This document shows, in pieces, positions 1 through 40,425 of a DNA stretch of 41,316 bases; positions within the stretch are counted from its first letter, which is position 1, and every line of letters starts with the position of its first letter. This DNA is from a virus (lineage: Duplodnaviria > Heunggongvirae > Uroviricota > Caudoviricetes): IMG/VR virus record IMGVR_UViG_2681813145_000006. One strand, 5' to 3'. Below the pieces are notes generated by a model. That model saw only the letters and a list, made by a program, of their open reading frames with translations, did no database searches and was not told where the DNA came from. A program made the translations under genes and the position numbers.

Positions 1-582
1 TTACCCTATAGGTGCTACTGGCCATTCAATATCCGGTGCAGTTGTTGTATTAACACGGTTCAGCAACACCCGATACTTCTTCCAGGCTTCCAGCAACGAG
101 ATTTCTTCCTCCGTTGCGATTTCCAGATCTACAGCATCCTGAAGCGGCGCTATATGCTCACTGGCTACCTGCATCAGGCTGTTTTTTGTTTCTTCCGCCT
201 CCCGGATCCGGAACAGTTTTTCTGCTTCCGTATCCTTCACCCAGACTGTACCGTTCCACTTCTGAAACTCCCCTTCCGGGGATAACCAGGTGACATTTTC
301 CGGTAATGAGCCGAGTTCAGAAATAAATAACGCGTCGCCGGAAGCCACGTCATAGACCGTTTTACCACGATGGTCTTCAACGAGATGCCACGATGCCTCA
401 TCACTGTTGAAAACAGCCACGAAGCCTGCCGGAATATCTGGCGGTGCAATATCGGTACTGTTTGCAGGCAGACCTGTATGAGGCGGAATATATGCGTCAC
501 CTTCACCAATAAATTCATTAGTTCCGGCCAGCAGGTTATAAATTTTTATGGTCCGTGCTTGTTCACTCATTCTGAATGCCAT
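1..582 (-). CDS. tfa: Tail fiber assembly protein (lambda Tfa-like), 193 aa
   Basis: Complete ORF; ATG at 580-582 overlaps the stf stop by 1 nt (TAATG); size and position 3' of stf match lambda tfa. Confidence 0.8.
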
Positions 583-7700: not shown

Positions 7701-8122
7701 ATCTGAACCAGCAGGCGGACTTCCGACGGATTCCTGTCCCCCTTTGAGGTGGTTTCCACCAGTGCCTGCACGCCGAAGGTAAAACGCAGTCGGTCAATGT
7801 TTGCCGACGTGATGGTCCGGGTGATCGGCGTGTCGTATTTCACTTCCGTACCCAGCACCGTCTCGGAGCCGGAGGATTCAAATCCCTCCGGCGGTGTCTG
7901 CTCCTGCTCACCGGCCCGGAACACCACCGTGACGCCGGAGATGTTGGTATTCCCCTCACTGTCCAGCACTGGCGTACTGTTCAGCAGCACGCTTTTTAAT
8001 CCATCCACCGGACCTTCAATCGGCCCTTCGCTGATGGCATCAATCACACTCAGCAGCTGCGTGGATTTCAGGTTGTCCTTCGCTTCGCGCGGGGTATGCC
8101 CCTTACTGCTGCCTTTACCCAT
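4727..8122 (-). CDS. J: Tail tip / host specificity protein J, 1131 aa
   Basis: ATG at 8120-8122; length matches lambda J (1132 aa); N-terminus [18 protein letters not shown]...; follows I in the lambda order. Confidence 0.9.
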
Positions 8123-25331: not shown

Positions 25332-25841
25332 TTATTTGCGTTTATTGACAGGTAATATAGAATTAGCAGCATCTTTCTCTCTCTCTTGGAACGAGTTATG
25401 TCTTTTAACCATATCAGGACCAATGAGACTATAAATTACTGTCAACAGTTGCCATAAAGTTAAAAAAACCAAAATGGCATATGACGCGCCCCTAAAAATG
25501 TCCTTGTGATCTATAAAAAACGGTATCTGTTTTACTAATGGCGCAACAACGCCAATAATTAAAACTGATGCTAAAATAGCAGTAGAATGTACAATTGGTG
25601 TAAATAACCTTGTAATCCCACTGCCATTAGATTCACTCGCTGAACTGCCACCTCTAAATGATTTTTTTAATCGTTCAGGATAGATTATCGCAAACCAAGC
25701 TCCCACAACTGCAAAGATAATGGATGCTGTAGTTCGCAGGGCCTCATAAAGAGGCCACTGGGATGAGAAGGGAACATTCTTCCCAAAATAGGCAGAAAAA
25801 ATCAGAACGACCATAAGAAAAATTCCACCTAAGATTTTCAT
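25332..25841 (-). CDS. Four-helix integral membrane protein, 169 aa, second gene of the AT-rich cargo cassette
   Basis: ATG at 25839-25841 directly after the upstream stop (TAGATG) with GGGA SD; four hydrophobic segments; family not recognised. Confidence 0.65.
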   Translation of the reverse strand: MKILGGIFLMVVLIFSAYFGKNVPFSSQWPLYEALRTTASIIFAVVGAWFAIIYPERLKKSFRGGSSASESNGSGITRLFTPIVHSTAILASVLIIGVVAPLVKQIPFFIDHKDIFRGASYAILVFLTLWQLLTVIYSLIGPDMVKRHNSFQEREKDAANSILPVNKRK

Positions 25842-26694
25842 CTACATTCCCGCCTCGCGTAATATGAGCTCCCTTTTGCCTACAAGTTCAGAAAGAAGAG
25901 ATTCCGAGGACACAAACTCGGCGTCCTGTCGCTCCAAATTCAAGTGGAATTTGGTTCGTGCTAATGAACGACTGAGCCAATATGTCGTTGGATCTCCTTT
26001 AAATACAAAACCATAATCACAAGAGTTTGTATCGCTATGTTTATTCCAATCATCAATCATCCCCTCGATGTCATCAATATCAACATTCGGAGAAAGTTCA
26101 TATTTAATTTTTGTTGAGGTATTTGCAGTTTGTGGATGGCTAATATTCATATTAATCAATAGTTTTTGCCACAGGCTAAACTCGTCAGGTTTTGACACAT
26201 CAAGTTCAACAACCTTTTCAATTTTAGAAACAATATTAGCATTCTGCCTAATAACTTCATGTTTACCAGGATTTCTTACTAAACCAGCTACGAACTGTGG
26301 ATAGTGTTTTTTCTTTGGCAGCACATCATCTGTTGGGTTAATTTTATAGCCCTTGATAACCACCTCATGCGTGCCATCTTCCTTCTCCACACTTTCCGCC
26401 ACAACGTGGCTTGATGACTGTTTTAAAAAATGATAGAGATAGCATTGCATCGCCTTCTGTCCCGTCAAAGCATGGTTAAACTTGATGCTAGCCACTAAAT
26501 CCATGGATGGAATAAACCAAAAGTAAGTAGCAAAACCAGGAATACTTCCCTTCTGGATTGAATTAAGTATTACTGTTGGGTCCGTACCAAATTCTGTATC
26601 TTCCTGAACCGATGGAACACTTTGATCTGTAGAAGGAACCTCATTCCAGAGCAACAAAACCACATTGTCACCAGCACGTTTCATATCCAGAAGA
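25842..26694 (-). pseudogene. C-terminal part (about 284 codons) of an unrecognised cargo gene split by IS1
   Basis: Frame is open from the IS1 boundary to the stop at 25842-25844; the listed ORF start at 26706-26708 is a TTG inside the IS1 end; first native ATG is 26682-26684 (MKRAGD...). Confidence 0.7.
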
Positions 26695-26709
26695 GGTAAT
26701 GACTCCAAC

Positions 26710-27213
26710 TTATTGATAGTGTTTTATGTTCAGATAATGCCCGATGACTTTGTCATGCAGCTCCACCGATTTTGAGAACGACAGCGACTTCCGTCCCAGC
26801 CGTGCCAGGTGCTGCCTCAGATTCAGGTTATGCCGCTCAATTCGCTGCGTATATCGCTTGCTGATTACGTGCAGCTTTCCCTTCAGGCGGGATTCATACA
26901 GCGGCCAGCCATCCGTCATCCATATCACCACGTCAAAGGGTGACAGCAGGCTCATAAGACGCCCCAGCGTCGCCATAGTGCGCTCACCGAATACGTGCGC
27001 AACAACCGTCTTCCGGAGACTGTCATACGCGTAAAACAGCCAGCGCTGGCGCGATTTAGCCCCGACATAGCCCCACTGTTCGTCCATTTCCGCGCAGACG
27101 ATGACGTCACTGCCCGGCTGTATGCGCGAGGTTACCGACTGCGGCCTGAGTTTTTTAAGTGACGTAAAATCGTGTTGAGGCCAACGCCCATAATGCGGGC
27201 AGTTGCCCGGCAT
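26710..27213 (-). CDS. insB: IS1 transposase InsB frame (expressed as the InsAB' frameshift fusion)
   Basis: 167-aa ORF inside IS1; the A6C slippery run lies at 27150-27156 on the plus strand. Confidence 0.85.
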
Positions 27214-30635: not shown

Positions 30636-30791
30636 TTACTCCTCAGGTTCGTAAGCTGTGAAGACAGCGACCTCCGTCTGGCCGGTTCGGATTCGTACCT
30701 CGCAGAGGTCTTTCCTCGTTACCAGTGCCGTCACAATGACGGTTAAACAGATGACGATCAGGGCGATTAACATCGCCTTTTGCTGCTTCAT
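30636..30791 (-). CDS. hokD: Hok/Gef family membrane toxin, 51 aa (HokD/RelF-like)
   Basis: ATG at 30789-30791 preceded by AAGGAGAA; MKQQKAMLIALIVICLTVIVTALVTRKDLCEVRIRTGQTEVAVFTAYEPEE has the Hok pattern; the listed ORF carries a 19-codon in-frame upstream extension. Confidence 0.75.
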   Translation of the reverse strand: MKQQKAMLIALIVICLTVIVTALVTRKDLCEVRIRTGQTEVAVFTAYEPEE

Positions 30792-31028
30792 AGCCTGCTT
30801 CTCCTTGCCTTTCGGCACGTAAGAGGCTAACCTAGATTTGCCGTTCATAGATTGAGCCTCAGATTAATGTTAAGCGTCTTGCCGGACGCGTAATGTTAAC
30901 TGGGGCTTTTCTCTATCTGCCTTTCAGTGTTCATGCCTGAGACAGATAGCCTCAAGCACCCGCAGCCATTCTACTTAACTCACGTCACCTCGCCAATATG
31001 AAATCAATCAGAAAGGTGATCCATAAAA

Positions 31029-31715
31029 TCACTCCTTCTCTTCTTTTCCGTAGTGGAGTTGGCCAATTTTGATAAGAGGGCGTCCCTGAGATTTGCGGTG
31101 TAGATTGGTATCGCGCAGAGAATACACACAGCCACAATATTCCTGCTGATAGAATTTTTCGCGCTTGCTGATTTCAATCATACGGGACGAGCCGCCCTGC
31201 TTGCGCCAGTTATAATCCCAGTACACCATACCCGGATAATGCGCAACAGCTCGCCGCCCACACTCGTTAACCTGCTGCATATTTTTCCAGCGTGAAATGC
31301 CCAGTGAACTGCTGATCACACTGAAACCATTTTCAGCAGCGTACAACGCTGTCCGCTCAAAACGCATGTCAAAACACATGGTACAACGGATCCCCCTCTC
31401 AGGCTCCCATTCCATTCCTTTGGCACGTTCAAACCAGTTGTCGGTGTCGTAATCAGCATCGATAAACGGCACGCCGTGTTGTTCAGCAAAGCGAATATTT
31501 TCATCCTTACGAATTAAATACTCTTTCTGAGGATGAATGTTCGGGTTGTAGAAAAAGATGGTGTAGTCGATTCCCGAGGCCTGAAGCGCCTCCATCACTT
31601 CACCGGAACATGGAGCACAGCAAGAGTGCAGTAGTAGTTTGTTTGCCCCGTTTGGGAGCTCCAATTTAGGCCGTTTGAAATCAGCAATAGTCATAAATAT
31701 TTTTATTGGGGTCAT
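31029..31715 (-). CDS. queH: Epoxyqueuosine reductase QueH-like protein (DUF208), 228 aa
   Basis: Motif [11 protein letters not shown] near the N-terminus and several further conserved Cys; an alternative ATG lies at 31692-31694. Confidence 0.65.
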
Positions 31716-34805: not shown

Positions 34806-34983
34806 ATGCCTGCCACCCACCCCGCCCCACAGAATGCAGGGCAATACTTCGAGTTACCAGGCAGTGGTCAGGGGTTAAGTAGCCAGCCCGAGGCGTAAGA
34901 ACATGACGGCAGGGTTCAACTTTAATAACTATGCAGCAGGTTTTTGTTCCGCTACCCCGGCGTTAAGGGGAAATGAGGTCAGC

Positions 34984-35139
34984 ATGGATACTATCAATCT
35001 TGGCAACAGCGAATCTCTGGTATGTGGCGTGTTCCCCAACCAGGACGGTACGTTCACCGCAATGACGTATACCAAAAGCAAAACGTTTAAAACCGAATCT
35101 GGAGCGCGTCGCTGGCTGGAAAGAAATTCAGGTGGGTGA
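34984..35139 (+). CDS. ydfA: YdfA-like small protein, 51 aa
   Basis: ATG at 34984 preceded by GAGG; first gene of the operon that ends with DicF and DicB; name assigned by length and synteny, not sequence recall. Confidence 0.5.
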   Translation: MDTINLGNSESLVCGVFPNQDGTFTAMTYTKSKTFKTESGARRWLERNSGG

Positions 35140-35140
35140 T

Positions 35141-35269
35141 ATGGATTTCGACACAATCATGGAAAAGGCTTACGAAGAATACTTCGAAGGCCTTGCCGAA
35201 GGCGAAGAAGCTCTCAGCTTCAGTGAGTTTAAACAGGCGCTTTCCAGCTCGGCAAAATCTAACGGCTGA
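35141..35269 (+). CDS. ydfB: YdfB-like small acidic protein, 42 aa
   Basis: ATG at 35141 preceded by AGGTGGG; below the 60-aa cutoff of the ORF track; name by length and synteny. Confidence 0.5.
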   Translation: MDFDTIMEKAYEEYFEGLAEGEEALSFSEFKQALSSSAKSNG

Positions 35270-35298: not shown

Positions 35299-35517
35299 AT
35301 GCAGAAACGAGAACCCGTCATCATCGCGCCAGATTATACCGATGATGAACTTTATGAGTGGATGCGCCAGAAAATTAATGCAGCGCAGGATCTGAAATGG
35401 GCCAATGAAGCCAGGGCTAAGCAGGCTGAAAATCTGTCCGCTCTGGAGCAGGATATCACCAGGCTGGAAAAAGCAGCGGCATTAAGCATTGCCAGAATGA
35501 TTACATACCCGCGTTAA
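35299..35517 (+). CDS. ydfC: YdfC-like protein, 72 aa
   Basis: ATG at 35299 preceded by GAGGAA; name by length and synteny. Confidence 0.55.
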   Translation: MQKREPVIIAPDYTDDELYEWMRQKINAAQDLKWANEARAKQAENLSALEQDITRLEKAAALSIARMITYPR

Positions 35518-35857: not shown

Positions 35858-35910
35858 TTTCTGGTGACGTTTGGCGGTATCAGTTTTACTCCGTGACTGC
35901 TCTGCCGCCC
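35858..35910 (+). ncRNA. dicF: DicF small RNA, 53 nt (ftsZ-targeting)
   Basis: TTTCTGGTGACGTTTGGCGGTATCAGTTTTACTCCGTGACTGCTCTGCCGCCC followed by TTTTT matches the DicF sequence as I recall it; lies between ydfC-like and dicB-like genes. Confidence 0.8.
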
Positions 35911-36084: not shown

Positions 36085-36273
36085 ATGAAAACGTTATTAC
36101 CAAACGTTAATACGTCTGAAGGTTGTTTTGAAATTGGTGTCACTATCAGTAATCCTGTATTTACTGAAGATGCCATTAACAAAAGAAAACACGAACGGGA
36201 GTTATTAAATAAAGTATGCATTGTTTCAATGCTGGCCCGTTTACGTCTGATGCCAAAAGGATGTGCACAATGA
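36085..36273 (+). CDS. dicB: Cell division inhibitor DicB, 62 aa
   Basis: ATG at 36085 preceded by GAGGG; MKTLLPNVNTSEGCFEIGVTISNPVFTEDAINKRK...MPKGCAQ matches DicB as recalled; downstream of DicF. Confidence 0.75.
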   Translation: MKTLLPNVNTSEGCFEIGVTISNPVFTEDAINKRKHERELLNKVCIVSMLARLRLMPKGCAQ

Positions 36274-36461
36274 ATCCAGTATTTGCACTTATTCTGACGG
36301 TTTTTCTTGTTTCCGGAGAGCCAGTTGATATTGCAGTCAGTGTTCACAGAACAATGCAGGAATGTATGGCAGCAGCAACCGAACAGAAAATTCCAGGCAA
36401 CTGTTATCCGGTCGATAAAGTTATTCACCAGGATAATAACGAAATCCCGGCAGGTCTTTAA
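36270..36461 (+). CDS. ydfD: YdfD-like small membrane protein, 63 aa
   Basis: ATG at 36270 overlaps the dicB stop (ATGA), AAGGA SD; one hydrophobic helix; name by length and synteny. Confidence 0.55.
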   Translation: MNPVFALILTVFLVSGEPVDIAVSVHRTMQECMAAATEQKIPGNCYPVDKVIHQDNNEIPAGL

Positions 36462-36554: not shown

Positions 36555-38996
36555 ATGAGCACTGATAAAGAAGAATTTGCACTATATTGCGAAGCAAAAA
36601 ATGACAAAGTAAGAAAACGCCTAGGAATTAAAGGTGGTTTTTACTGGACTACAGCAAAAAAATTATCTGTTGCAATCTCCCGCTGCATTACCGCAATGGA
36701 TGACAACGATTATGATGAAGACGACTTTAAAAAACCCGTCCGCGTCAATTTGCCCGTTGTTGACGACCTTCCGCCAGAAGGCGTGTTTGATACTGAATTC
36801 TGCAACCGCTATGAAAAAGGCGGGAAAGATGGCATCACAATGACATTTATCGGCCCTTCCCCCTCTGTTCAGGACAAACCAGCCAGCACTGACAATACCA
36901 ACATCAACGGCGAAGACATGGCTGAGATTGAGGAGAGCATGCTTCTGCCTGTCTCCGGTCAGGAACTGCCCATTCGTTGGCTTGCTCAACACGGCAGCGA
37001 AAAACCAGTAACGCACGTTTCACGCGACGAACTCCAGGCATTACACATTGCACGGGCTGAAGAACTACCGGCTGTTACTGCCCTGGCTATTTCGCATAAA
37101 ACCAGTCTGCTCGACTCGCTGGAGATTCGCGACCTCCACAAACTGGTTCGTGACACTGACAAAGTTTTCCCTAATCCTGGTAATTCAGACCTGGGACTAA
37201 TAACTGCTTTTTTCGAAGCATACCTGGACGCTGACTACACTGATCGGGGTCTGCTGACAAAAGAGTGGATGAAAGGAAATCGTGTTTCACGCATCACCCG
37301 CACGGCTTCCGGTGCTAATGCTGGCGGTGGGAACAAAACCGATCGCAATCCGAATTTAGTACACACCCTCGACACACTGGATGTGGAGATTGCAGCAGCC
37401 ACACTTCCGATGGATTTTAATATTTATGAAATTCCGGGCAGCGTTTATCGTCGCGCAAAAGAAGTAGTCCTGAACAAAGAAAGTCCGTTCAAAGAATGGT
37501 CCGCAGCACTTCGTGCAACCCCGGGTATTCTGGACTATTCCCGCGCCGCTATTTTTGCACTTATCCGAAGCGCACACCCTGAATTTTATCACTACCCGGG
37601 ACGCCTTCAGGGGTATATCAACGCCTATTTGACGGAAACTGATCACGAGAACCCCAGCAAGGAAACTCTCACAGCTGCCCGGCATACGCCGGAAAAAGAT
37701 ATCCTGGAAGAAATTAACCGCGAGGTGGTTACTGAGCGTGAAACAGAAGAAGAAAAACCACAACCATCTGACGCAATGGCAGGTGAACAGGCAACAACTG
37801 AAACAATGGAACCGGATACAACTGAACATGGCCAAAACGCGCAGTCGCTGGATGCTCAGTCGCAGGTGAGTTCCGCTAACCAAGTAAAAGTCACCGCTGA
37901 CGAAGTAAACAAAATTATGCAGGCAGCCAATATCAGCCAGCCTGACGCCGATAAGTTACTTGCTGTATCGCGTGGTGAATTTGTTGAGGGGATTAGCGAC
38001 CCTAATGATCCGAAATGGGTCAAGGGGATCCAGACTCGCGATTCTGTGAACCAGAACCAGCATGAATCGGAACGGAACGACCAAAAAGCGGAACAAAATA
38101 GCCCAAATGCGTTACAAAACGAGCCAGAAACGAAACAATCCGAACCAGTAGCGCAACAGGAACCGGAAAAAGTCTGCACCGCCTGCGGTCAGAGCGGTGG
38201 CGGCAACTGCCCTGATTGTGGCGCGGTGATGGGCGACGCAACATACCAGGAAACATTCGATGAAGAGAATCAGGTTGAAGTTCAGGAAAATGATCCGGAG
38301 GAAATGGAAGGCGCTGAACATCCACACAAGGAGAACCCTGGCGGCAATCAGCATCACGCCAGCGATAATAAAACTGGCGAGACGGCAGATCACTCAATTA
38401 AGGTGACCGGTCATCACGAAATCACATCCACCAGCAGGACGTGTGACCATCTAATGATCGACCTTGAAACCATGGGAAAAAATCCTGATGCCCCGATCAT
38501 CTCAATAGGTGCAATATTTTTCGATCCGCAAACCGGAGATATGGGACCGGAATTTAGTAAGACTATCGATCTGGAAACTGCTGGCGGAGTCATTGATCGG
38601 GACACCATTAAATGGTGGCTTAAGCAATCACGCGAAGCGCAATCTGCCATTATGACCGATGAAATCCCGTTAGATGATGCACTGTTACAATTGCGGGAAT
38701 TTATCGACGAAAACTCCGGTGAATTTTTTGTTCAGGTCTGGGGAAATGGAGCCAACTTCGACAACACGATTTTGCGCCGTTCATACGAACGGCAGGGGAT
38801 CCCCTGCCCGTGGCGTTACTACAACGATCGCGATGTACGCACAATCGTTGAGCTGGGGAAAGCCATAGACTTCGATGCCAGAACGGCTATTCCATTCGAA
38901 GGTGAGCGCCATAATGCACTTGATGACGCTCGTTACCAGGCAAAATACGTTTCAGCTATCTGGCAAAAACTGATCCCGAGTCAGGCTGATTTTTAA
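36555..38996 (+). CDS. Large RecE-like prophage protein with C-terminal DEDDh (DnaQ-like) 3'-5' exonuclease domain, 813 aa
   Basis: ATG at 36555; long N-terminal and central region that I recall as shared with RecE; C-terminal motifs [20 protein letters not shown] and HNALDDARY. Confidence 0.7.
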
Positions 38997-39054: not shown

Positions 39055-39258
39055 ATGAGCAGCTTATTTTTAACCGAAGATGAATTGCTAATATTAACGG
39101 GCTGCAAATATGCAAGCCACCAGCGAAAATGGTTAATGGAAAACGGGCTTCCGTTCTATACCAATCGTAGTGGCAAACCGATTGTCAGCCGGGATCTATT
39201 TACCTGCAATAAAACTTTACCACCACGCGAGGTAGAGCCGAATTTTGGTGCGATCTGA
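39055..39258 (+). CDS. xis: Excisionase-like small protein, 67 aa
   Basis: ATG at 39055; stop overlaps the int start (ATGA); position immediately 5' of the integrase gene. Confidence 0.5.
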   Translation: MSSLFLTEDELLILTGCKYASHQRKWLMENGLPFYTNRSGKPIVSRDLFTCNKTLPPREVEPNFGAI

Positions 39259-40283
39259 TGGGAAGACGAAGGAAAAATCCTGAACACGAAAAATTACCTC
39301 CAAATGTATACCCAAATAAATATAGTTATGTATGGAAACCAACATCCAGAGAATCTGTCACACTAACCGCCATCAAGGATGGTTTAGCTGCTTTATGGAA
39401 AAAGTATGAGGAAACTGTAAATAATCGCGATCGTGCAATGACATTCGGTCGCTTGTGGGAAAAATTCCTCGCCAGCGCCTATTACAGTGACCTTAGTCCA
39501 AGAACACAAAAAGATTATCTGCAACATCAAAAAAAGTTGCTTGCCGTATTCGGTAAGGTACCAGCGGATTCCATAAAACCAGAACACATCCGTCGATACA
39601 TGGACAAAAGAGGGGAGCAGAGTAAAACGCAAGCCAACCATGAAAAAAGCAGTATGTCCCGTGTTTACAGTTGGGGGTATGAGCGAGGGTACGTGAAGGC
39701 TAACCCATGTGCAGGTGTAAGTAAATTCAAGGCCAAAAACCGCGAACGATATGTAACCGACAAAGAATACCAGGCAGTATTAAGCGTTGCACCTCTTCCT
39801 GTTTTTATCGCAATGGAAATTGCCTATCTGTGTGCAGCGAGGGTTTCCGATGTGTTATCGCTGAAATGGGAACAGATTGGAAACGACGGGATATTCATCC
39901 AGCAAGGGAAAACCGGAAAAAAACAGATAAAAGCATGGAGTCCACGATTACAGGCAGCGATCGAAAAAGCAAAACAGTTACCAAAATCTGCCTATGTGAT
40001 CAGCAATCAATACGGCAACCGATATATGTACAAAGGCTTTAACGAAATGTGGGTAGATGCAAGAAATCGTGCTGGAAAAATTTCAGGTATTTTAACCGAC
40101 TTCACCTTTCATGATCTGAAGGCGAAAGGAATTTCAGACTATGAAGGAAGCAGCCGGGATAAGCAACTTTTCTCTGGTCACAAAACCGAAGGGCAAGTGC
40201 TAATCTATGACAGGAAGGTTAAAGTTTCACCAACACTTGATGTCCCGTTACCTGAAAATATTCCAAGAAAATATTCCAAGTAA
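39258..40283 (+). CDS. int: Tyrosine-type phage integrase, 341 aa
   Basis: ATG at 39258; C-terminal catalytic region FHDLKAKG...SGHKTEGQVLIYDR; adjacent to a tRNA gene. Confidence 0.85.
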   Translation: MGRRRKNPEHEKLPPNVYPNKYSYVWKPTSRESVTLTAIKDGLAALWKKYEETVNNRDRAMTFGRLWEKFLASAYYSDLSPRTQKDYLQHQKKLLAVFGKVPADSIKPEHIRRYMDKRGEQSKTQANHEKSSMSRVYSWGYERGYVKANPCAGVSKFKAKNRERYVTDKEYQAVLSVAPLPVFIAMEIAYLCAARVSDVLSLKWEQIGNDGIFIQQGKTGKKQIKAWSPRLQAAIEKAKQLPKSAYVISNQYGNRYMYKGFNEMWVDARNRAGKISGILTDFTFHDLKAKGISDYEGSSRDKQLFSGHKTEGQVLIYDRKVKVSPTLDVPLPENIPRKYSK

Positions 40284-40335: not shown

Positions 40336-40425
40336 TGGCGGAGAGAGGGGGATTTGAACCCCCGGTGGAGTTGCCCCCACTCCGGTTTTCGAGACCGGTC
40401 CGTTCAGCCGCTCCGGCATCTCTCC
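40336..40425 (-). tRNA. serU: tRNA-Ser, anticodon CGA (serU-like), 90 nt
   Basis: Minus-strand sequence GGAGAGATGCCGGAGCGGCTGAACGGACCGGTCTCGAAAACCGG...GGTTCAAATCCCCCTCTCTCCGCCA; anticodon loop CUCGAAA; long variable arm; encoded CCA. Confidence 0.9.

Follow-up and report, generated by a model that had tools for sequence, protein, structure and literature searches.

What does a prophage do with a protein that begins like the recombination exonuclease RecE, ends in an exonuclease domain of another fold and has no annealase gene beside it? This question is raised by the gene at 36555-38996 of a 41,316-nucleotide stretch of DNA (IMG/VR virus record IMGVR_UViG_2681813145_000006; the whole stretch is hereafter the window), which represents a lambdoid Escherichia coli prophage inserted at tRNA-Ser beside mtfA. 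An earlier note on the window, made from the letters alone, had read the product as a RecE-like 'scaffold' of about 600 amino acids (aa) followed by some 200 residues of a DnaQ-like 3'-5' exonuclease, and had suggested a domain swap that lacked a recT partner. We found that this is an intact early gene of the prophage, and that its product consists of three parts: a RecE-type N-terminal module, a linker and a C-terminal DEDDh domain resembling DexA, the exonuclease A of phage T4.

The open reading frame (ORF) runs exactly as the earlier note had it, on the plus strand and from an ATG over 813 codons, and its product is 100% identical to RefSeq WP_021530550.1, where it is named 'exonuclease'. 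Since identical annotated genes are found in many genomes, a frame of this length is not a chance feature. Scanning the 813-aa protein against Pfam gave two domains above threshold. Residues 57-189 match PF06630 (Exonuc_VIII; E 1e-35), and residues 632-803 match PF16473 (Rv2179c-like 3'-5' exonuclease) over practically its full length (profile positions 2-177 of 177) at E 7e-68, with a score of 228 bits for a cut-off of 27. A PADLOC scan of the same protein returned no significant defence match (best E 0.03), and membership of a known defence family was therefore discarded as its identity.

The C-terminal domain carries the three exonuclease motifs, and the MIDLETMG, NFD and HNALDDARY sequences picked out by the earlier note were all located, at aa 634-641, 729-737 (as WGNGANFDN) and 786-794, respectively. 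All of 48 homologues, some with as little as 41% identity over the aligned segment, retain the five catalytic residues within these motifs (D636, E638, D736, H786 and D791), which correspond in an alignment to those of T4 DexA; the domain matches phrog_255 at E 4e-80, and T4 DexA is also a member of phrog_255. In an AlphaFold2 model built for aa 441-813, the predicted local distance difference test (pLDDT) score was ~90 over aa ~630-810, with the linker being of low confidence, and a Foldseek comparison to the PDB placed T4 DexA (8KEL/8KEN) on top at E 9e-12, followed by RNase T (about 1e-8), a DnaQ domain, Orn/REXO2 and ERI. DexA was likewise the sole solved protein found by a sequence search of the PDB, though the two are only ~28% identical, and DexA, encoded by a lytic phage, stands alone with 227 aa and has extra loops. 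Pfam, the catalytic residues and the Foldseek matches to DEDDh enzymes thus bear out the presence of a DnaQ-like domain where RecE has its nuclease, and the modelled fold is that of the DEDDh exonucleases, unrelated to the RecE/lambda-Exo fold. Family membership suggests that the domain would be active as an exonuclease and would work in the 3'-5' direction.

A pairwise alignment with RecE, which the earlier note had proposed as a check together with the domain search of the last 200 residues, located the point at which the resemblance ends. Using RecE (exonuclease VIII) of the K-12 Rac prophage sequence, BLASTP aligned residues 58-615 of the query to RecE 50-591 at 58% identity and nothing past there, so that the first ~600 residues are indeed RecE-like and no part of the C-terminal domain could be aligned to the nuclease of RecE. 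The similarity stops at RecE ~591, which is the start of its nuclease domain, and because the breakpoint falls on this boundary the term domain swap is a fair description. In agreement with this, the NCBIfam RecE equivalog NF007259 aligned query residues 1-615 to model positions 1-602 of 877 only, scoring 940.7 bits, under the equivalog cut-off of 1269. The RecE C-terminal PD-(D/E)XK nuclease domain was not found when RecE 591-866 was searched across the 41-kb window by tblastn (best E 0.62), and a leftover fragment of that domain was accordingly rejected. The two proteins therefore share the N-terminal and central 590-615 residues, including PF06630, a conserved block of the linker and a zinc-ribbon-like motif, whereas RecE ends in a 5'-3' PD-(D/E)XK nuclease and the window protein in a DEDDh domain.

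The N-terminal part proved to be less loose than the word scaffold implied, as aa 1-400 are predicted to be well folded, the first 100 residues forming an alpha/beta domain and residues 130-400 a helical one. The function of the corresponding N-terminal 590 residues of RecE is still called unknown (PMC11611040). The linker that follows (aa ~440-625) is common to RecE and to the homologous proteins of phages Tritos and mEp460, and is predicted to be mostly disordered. It contains an invariant block, SRGEF..DPNDPKW.KGIQTRD, and a zinc-ribbon-like CxxC-x7-CxxC motif with a weak Pfam DZR match, both conserved with RecE, Tritos and mEp460. These two elements are the most conserved of the parts shared by RecE and the Tritos, mEp460 and window proteins, yet they are disordered in the AlphaFold2 model; they may constitute a putative binding site for a partner or a metal.

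Having no RecE nuclease, does the prophage encode any partner with which a recombination exonuclease could work? The gene is the last of the ydfA-ydfB-ydfC-DicF-dicB-ydfD early-left (dicB) operon and lies directly ahead of xis and int, in the position that racC-recE-recT-ralR occupies in Rac-type phages. Lambda carries exo-bet-gam in the corresponding slot. Unlike at the Rac locus, recT, ralR and racC are absent beside the window gene. The earlier note had stated that xis and int follow with no RecT-like annealase between, and had named a recT-like gene turning up on re-inspection as one finding that would refute its reading; none was found in the 41-kb window by tblastn with RecT (best E 3.2), and a hidden copy there was rejected. 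Neither this finding nor the other one that the note had named, alignment of the C-terminal domain with the RecE nuclease fold, thus came about. Pfam scans of the 20 other non-structural ORFs found neither an annealase nor Gam, their content comprising holin, IS1, Q, RusA, DUF968, QueH, DUF977 and YdaS/YdaT-like matches, as well as DUF1391, DicB, DUF1482, DUF4224 (xis) and integrase. No single-strand annealing protein (SSAP) was found in the window by either Pfam or the PGAP annotation. The early-left genes ydfA, ydfB, ydfC, dicB and ydfD gave no recognisable Gam/Abc2 Pfam match; an unrecognised RecBCD inhibitor might still be encoded.

The distribution of Chi sites (GCTGGTGG) gave a further indication of how such a phage might recombine. 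The window contains 17 of them against 1.6 expected, a number reached in 0 of 100 shuffles, with 13 lying on the minus (late-gene) strand and 4 on the plus strand. In Table 1 of a 2025 study (PMC12315714), phage Tritos is the prototype of a class that has a nuclease and many Chi sites and lacks a single-strand annealing protein, a single-stranded DNA-binding protein (SSB) and an anti-RecBCD function, and the published range of Chi strand splits in this class is 21/6 to 7/2. The window has an early-left nuclease gene that is homologous to the Tritos nuclease gene and is accompanied by neither an annealase nor an SSB, as well as a Chi excess and no recognisable Gam or Abc2, and so fits this nuclease-only, annealase-less, Chi-rich class. 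Moreover, the viable phages Tritos, mEp460, HannyBb and vB_EcoS-640R1 encode 813-823-aa versions of the protein in the same dicB-ydfD-exo-xis-int order, also without an annealase.

Because the phage has no annealase and no recognised RecBCD inhibitor and is rich in Chi sites, we favour, with moderate confidence, the view that the protein is a metal-dependent 3'-5' DNA exonuclease that trims or controls ends in a phage relying on host RecBCD, Chi and RecA. The enzyme would be made upon derepression of the dicB/early-left operon, and the N-terminal and linker part that it shares with RecE would probably deliver it to the same place or partner as RecE. There, the DEDDh domain would act on DNA ends in a metal-dependent, 3'-5' manner, probably trimming or controlling 3' ends while the host RecBCD-Chi-RecA machinery performs strand exchange, and the protein would not be one member of an exonuclease/annealase pair of the RecET type. 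That DNA is the substrate is suggested by DexA and its E. coli homologue EcD, both of which were shown to degrade DNA (PMC12153337). Several points weigh against this proposal. DnaQ-like 3'-5' exonucleases usually inhibit recombination (PMC12315714), so that one would not readily expect the protein to promote recombination; the link to RecBCD and Chi is a correlation across phages; the timing of expression is deduced only from the position in the operon; the targeting role of the N-terminal part is a guess, since no informative structural relative of this module was obtained by structure comparison; and an RNA substrate is possible because PF16473 is named for an exoribonuclease.

To assess how widespread the gene is, 5426 complete E. 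coli genomes were searched with the 597 bp of DEDDh-domain DNA at a coverage of at least 80%. It was present in 4053 of these genomes (75%), at 8111 places, whereas the RecE nuclease-domain DNA together with recT was present in 1728, so that true recET is only about half as widespread in E. coli as the DEDDh form. The earlier note thus overestimated the rarity of the gene: RefSeq annotates it, and in E. coli it occurs more often than recET. The nuclease-only lambdoid class has also been published already (PMC12315714), and the window gene is a common and annotated representative of a family from a phage class on record. Identical copies in many complete E. coli genomes are named 'exonuclease' or '3'-5' exonuclease' in RefSeq, and labels across databases vary further, including 'RecE family exodeoxyribonuclease', 'exodeoxyribonuclease VIII' and '3'-5' exoribonuclease'; O157 prophage genes of this type were counted as an 'Exo VIII-type' recombination system (PMC2669165). 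Literature searches, including some on PF16473 and on Rv2179c in connection with phages, found no paper on the RecE-N/DEDDh fusion as such or on a test of its function, and a Gifsy-1 RNA-repair paper (PMC9879122) was set aside as having no bearing on the protein.

At the DNA level the gene is a mosaic. One segment of its 5' part is 92% identical to K-12 Rac recE, and the last 1.1 kb are 97% identical to the Tritos gene (TRITO_27) and 94% to that of mEp460 (823 aa), which indicates that the window gene is a recombinant of a Rac-type 5' part and a Qin/Tritos-type 3' part, the junction lying within the shared linker. Accordingly, the window protein has its linker and DEDDh domain in common with the Tritos and mEp460 exonucleases, along with the annealase-less operon, and differs from them and from YdfE in its first ~440 residues, which are of the YdfE type in those proteins and of the Rac/RecE type here. 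YdfE itself is encoded by a pseudogene of the K-12 Qin prophage (locus L006, 5079-5999) and shares 99% identity with residues 1-256 of the Tritos exonuclease (823 aa); as ydfE represents the first 256 codons of a Tritos-type gene interrupted by IS2, K-12 carries a remnant of this exonuclease family. The ratio of nonsynonymous to synonymous substitution rates (dN/dS) was 0.18-0.35 relative to Tritos and mEp460, a range that shows the 3' part of the gene to be under purifying selection.

The exchange of one nuclease domain for another behind a conserved front raised the question of what else this front is attached to. A homologue search with the N-terminus had returned only fragments of 99-100% identity, with no diversity, and the family was surveyed by an exhaustive profile search with aa 1-615, the C-termini of long members being classed by local phmmer. 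This search yielded only 264 clusters at 50% identity. Among the long members, ~22 clusters have a RecE-type nuclease at the C-terminus and ~17 a DEDDh domain, and two more C-terminal types occur. The third type is a ~265-aa domain (P0130, P0180, P0198, P0201, P0203, P0229 and P0265) with the conserved motif DGEAQKKSLTDAIKKALSLLGFSADVWLGLYD (KKSLTDAxKKALSxLGFxADxxLGLYD), matched below threshold by Pfam Rad52_Rad22 in 6 of the 7 members (best E 0.0023) and without a PDB match in sequence and profile searches; a firm Rad52 assignment was therefore rejected, the similarity being suggestive only. Genes of this type (loci L009 and L010, 5001-7445) occupy the same pre-xis slot, followed by a Sipho_Gp157 gene. 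To judge by these sequence features, the third type may be a fused annealase, and its members may be the 'RecE-2' proteins of PMC12315714, reported there to have no nuclease domain. The fourth type (P0185, P0195, P0219, P0223, P0230, P0235, P0237 and P0258) corresponds to phrog_26058, of unknown function, and has no Pfam domain.

The DEDDh form keeps its position as well as its architecture, since a 41%-identical RecE-N/DEDDh protein on another contig is again encoded directly ahead of xis and int, without an annealase. The same pre-xis position is held in Salmonella prophages by a stand-alone 189-aa DEDDh gene; such Rv2179c-like exonucleases of Salmonella and other Enterobacteriaceae prophages (for example P0112) have a domain ~60% identical to that of the window protein but no RecE-type N-terminal module. 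An apparent stand-alone E. coli form of 183 aa (P0074; locus L015, 737-3127) was dismissed as an artefact, runs of N having split a full-length gene into three ORFs, and some short 'exoribonuclease' database entries may be similar artefacts of draft assembly. Taken across the family, the RecE-type N-terminal part and linker could be a portable delivery platform for interchangeable DNA-end enzymes. At least four kinds of C-terminus occur on it: the 5'-3' nuclease of RecE, the predicted 3'-5' DEDDh exonuclease, a domain that is probably a Rad52-like annealase, and another of unknown function. This broader idea is a tentative one, which we judge somewhat unlikely. If it were true, the DEDDh version would represent a distinct and undescribed means of handling DNA ends; it might shape ends for RecBCD/Chi-dependent concatemers or remove 3'-ended immune or recombination intermediates, and comparing the versions could reveal the role of the long-unexplained N-terminal region of RecE.

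Rather than processing the phage's own ends, the protein might defend the lysogen against superinfection in the manner of EcD ('HREX'), degrading incoming phage DNA that contains modified bases such as 5-hydroxymethylcytosine (5hmC). The study that solved the structure of T4 DexA (PMC12153337, NAR 2025) reported that EcD cleaves 5hmC DNA and that its plasmid-borne expression confers protection from T4. EcD is, like the window protein, an E. coli-encoded DexA-like DEDDh exonuclease, and its beginning, which we know from primers only, reads MIDTET, close to the MIDLET of the window protein; an advantage to the host could account for the domain being present in three quarters of the complete E. 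coli genomes, and the same window holds a candidate defence cassette, PDC-M18. However, EcD is a stand-alone enzyme of ~190 aa and not an 813-aa fusion, and the residues linked in that study to the reading of 5hmC or to the dimeric state do not appear to be kept. DexA W152, which stacks on 5hmC, is replaced by Tyr (PWRYYNDRD compared with PCKFWNQRD in DexA), at a position that varies across the family (Y, W, F and R, with C and H in other homologues); D169 falls, in a MAFFT alignment, within a 14-residue insertion found in DexA only, the alignment of loops at 28% identity being uncertain; and the position of the tetramer-forming D90 is still Asp here and is Ala in EcD. In addition, the gene lies deep in a repressed early-left operon, the surrounding region has no excess of promoter-like sites over shuffled sequence, and PADLOC gave no significant match, as described above. 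We therefore regard such a defence role as unlikely.

Early-left operons commonly hold anti-defence genes, and the enzyme could belong among these, either destroying a 3'-ended immune nucleic acid, such as retron multicopy single-stranded DNA (msDNA) or another single-stranded DNA or RNA signal, or avoiding, by its swapped polarity, the sensors of RecE-type degradation. When expressed from the corresponding locus of Rac, RecE breaks down retron msDNA and sets off retron-Sen2/Eco9; the study concerned calls it anti-restriction (bioRxiv 10.1101/2020.06.22.160242). Yet direct evidence was not found, there being neither linkage to a known anti-defence family nor a partner gene, and the recurrence of the domain at this position in different genera, as a gene of its own, would be explained no less well by a housekeeping role in the phage, making an anti-defence role distinctly unlikely in our assessment.

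An exoribonuclease, trimming or degrading RNA such as the operon's own transcripts (DicF), host small RNAs or oligoribonucleotides, would account for the name of PF16473, which derives from Rv2179c of Mycobacterium tuberculosis, for the presence of RNase T, Orn and REXO2 among the structural matches and for the DicF small RNA gene in the operon. Against this stand the nearest solved relative by both sequence and fold, the DNA exonuclease DexA, a member of the same phrog_255, as well as the fusion to the front of a DNA recombination nuclease and a slot that is that of the phage recombination module; we consider an RNA substrate very unlikely. That the gene is a non-functional relic, a chimera that arose when a Rac-type and a Qin-type prophage exchanged DNA illegitimately and that has no selected function, is scarcely credible, for while its DNA is a mosaic, many prophage copies are truncated (such as ydfE, cut by IS2) and the integrase of the identical strain 19-5 prophage is frameshifted, the intact frame is identical in many genomes, its catalytic residues are invariant, its dN/dS is low, it is found in plaque-forming or induced phages and its architecture is retained at 41% identity.

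The features of the gene and its surroundings are collected in Table 1. Elsewhere in the window, a two-gene cassette of low GC content (~0.42) matches the PADLOC candidate PDC-M18, component B at E 3e-75 and component A at E 9e-197, with no Pfam or NCBIfam match; it adjoins an IS1 transposase gene and lies between the Q antiterminator and the lysis genes. A homologue of QueH (epoxyqueuosine reductase) is also encoded within the prophage, near a hok/sok module, and an Rfam IS009 RNA match (224.5 bits) is situated at the window's left extremity, next to ORFs of the tail-fibre region.

Table 1. Position of the exonuclease gene, its parts and neighbouring features in the window.
Feature	Position	Strand	Remarks
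IS009 RNA match	41-239	-	Rfam
PDC-M18 candidate cassette	25332-26708	-	two genes
IS1 transposase	26710-27213	-	
sok RNA	30786-30961		hok/sok module
QueH homologue	31029-31715	-	
ydfA-like, DUF1391	34903-35139	+	
ydfB	35132-35269	+	
ydfC	35299-35517	+	
DicF antisense small RNA	35859-35910	+	Rfam RF00039, 76.7 bits; upstream of dicB, ydfD and the exonuclease gene
dicB	36085-36273	+	
ydfD/DUF1482	36270-36461	+	
RecE-N/DEDDh exonuclease gene, complete	36555-38996	+	ATG start, 813 aa, coordinates include stop
N-terminal folded module, aa 1-400	36555-37754	+	RecE-type, includes PF06630
PF06630 match	36723-37121	+	
Stretch homologous to K-12 RecE residues 50-591	36726-38399	+	58% aa identity
Segment matching K-12 Rac recE	36893-37346	+	gene positions 339-792; 92% DNA identity
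Central acidic/Gln-rich linker, aa 441-625	37875-38429	+	from alignment; low pLDDT
Segment matching the Tritos and mEp460 genes	37885-38996	+	gene positions 1331-2442; 97% and 94% DNA identity
Invariant linker block	37968-38042	+	
CxxC-x7-CxxC zinc-ribbon-like motif, aa 541-556	38175-38222	+	conserved in RecE, Tritos and mEp460
DEDDh 3'-5' exonuclease domain (predicted), aa 632-803	38448-38963	+	Pfam, phrog_255, pLDDT, Foldseek
Exo I motif MIDLETMG, aa 634-641	38454-38477	+	catalytic D636 and E638
Exo II motif WGNGANFDN, aa 729-737	38739-38765	+	catalytic D736
Exo III motif HNALDDARY, aa 786-794	38910-38936	+	catalytic H786 and D791
xis (excisionase, DUF4224)	39055-39258	+	begins 58 bases past the exonuclease stop
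int (tyrosine integrase)	39258-40283	+	
tRNA-Ser, prophage end and attachment site	40339-40425	-	host gene mtfA next

These data bear on how such genes are recorded and on what may be learned from them. The many records and papers that file proteins of this kind under 'exodeoxyribonuclease VIII / RecE family' or as an 'ExoVIII-type recombination system' need correction, as these proteins have neither the RecE nuclease nor an annealase partner and probably digest the opposite strand end. The gene belongs to a lambdoid class that is proposed to depend on host RecBCD and Chi, and what a lone nuclease does in such phages is a question that experiments can address. Finally, the occurrence of the same folded module on different end-processing domains offers a route to testing the function of the N-terminal part of RecE.

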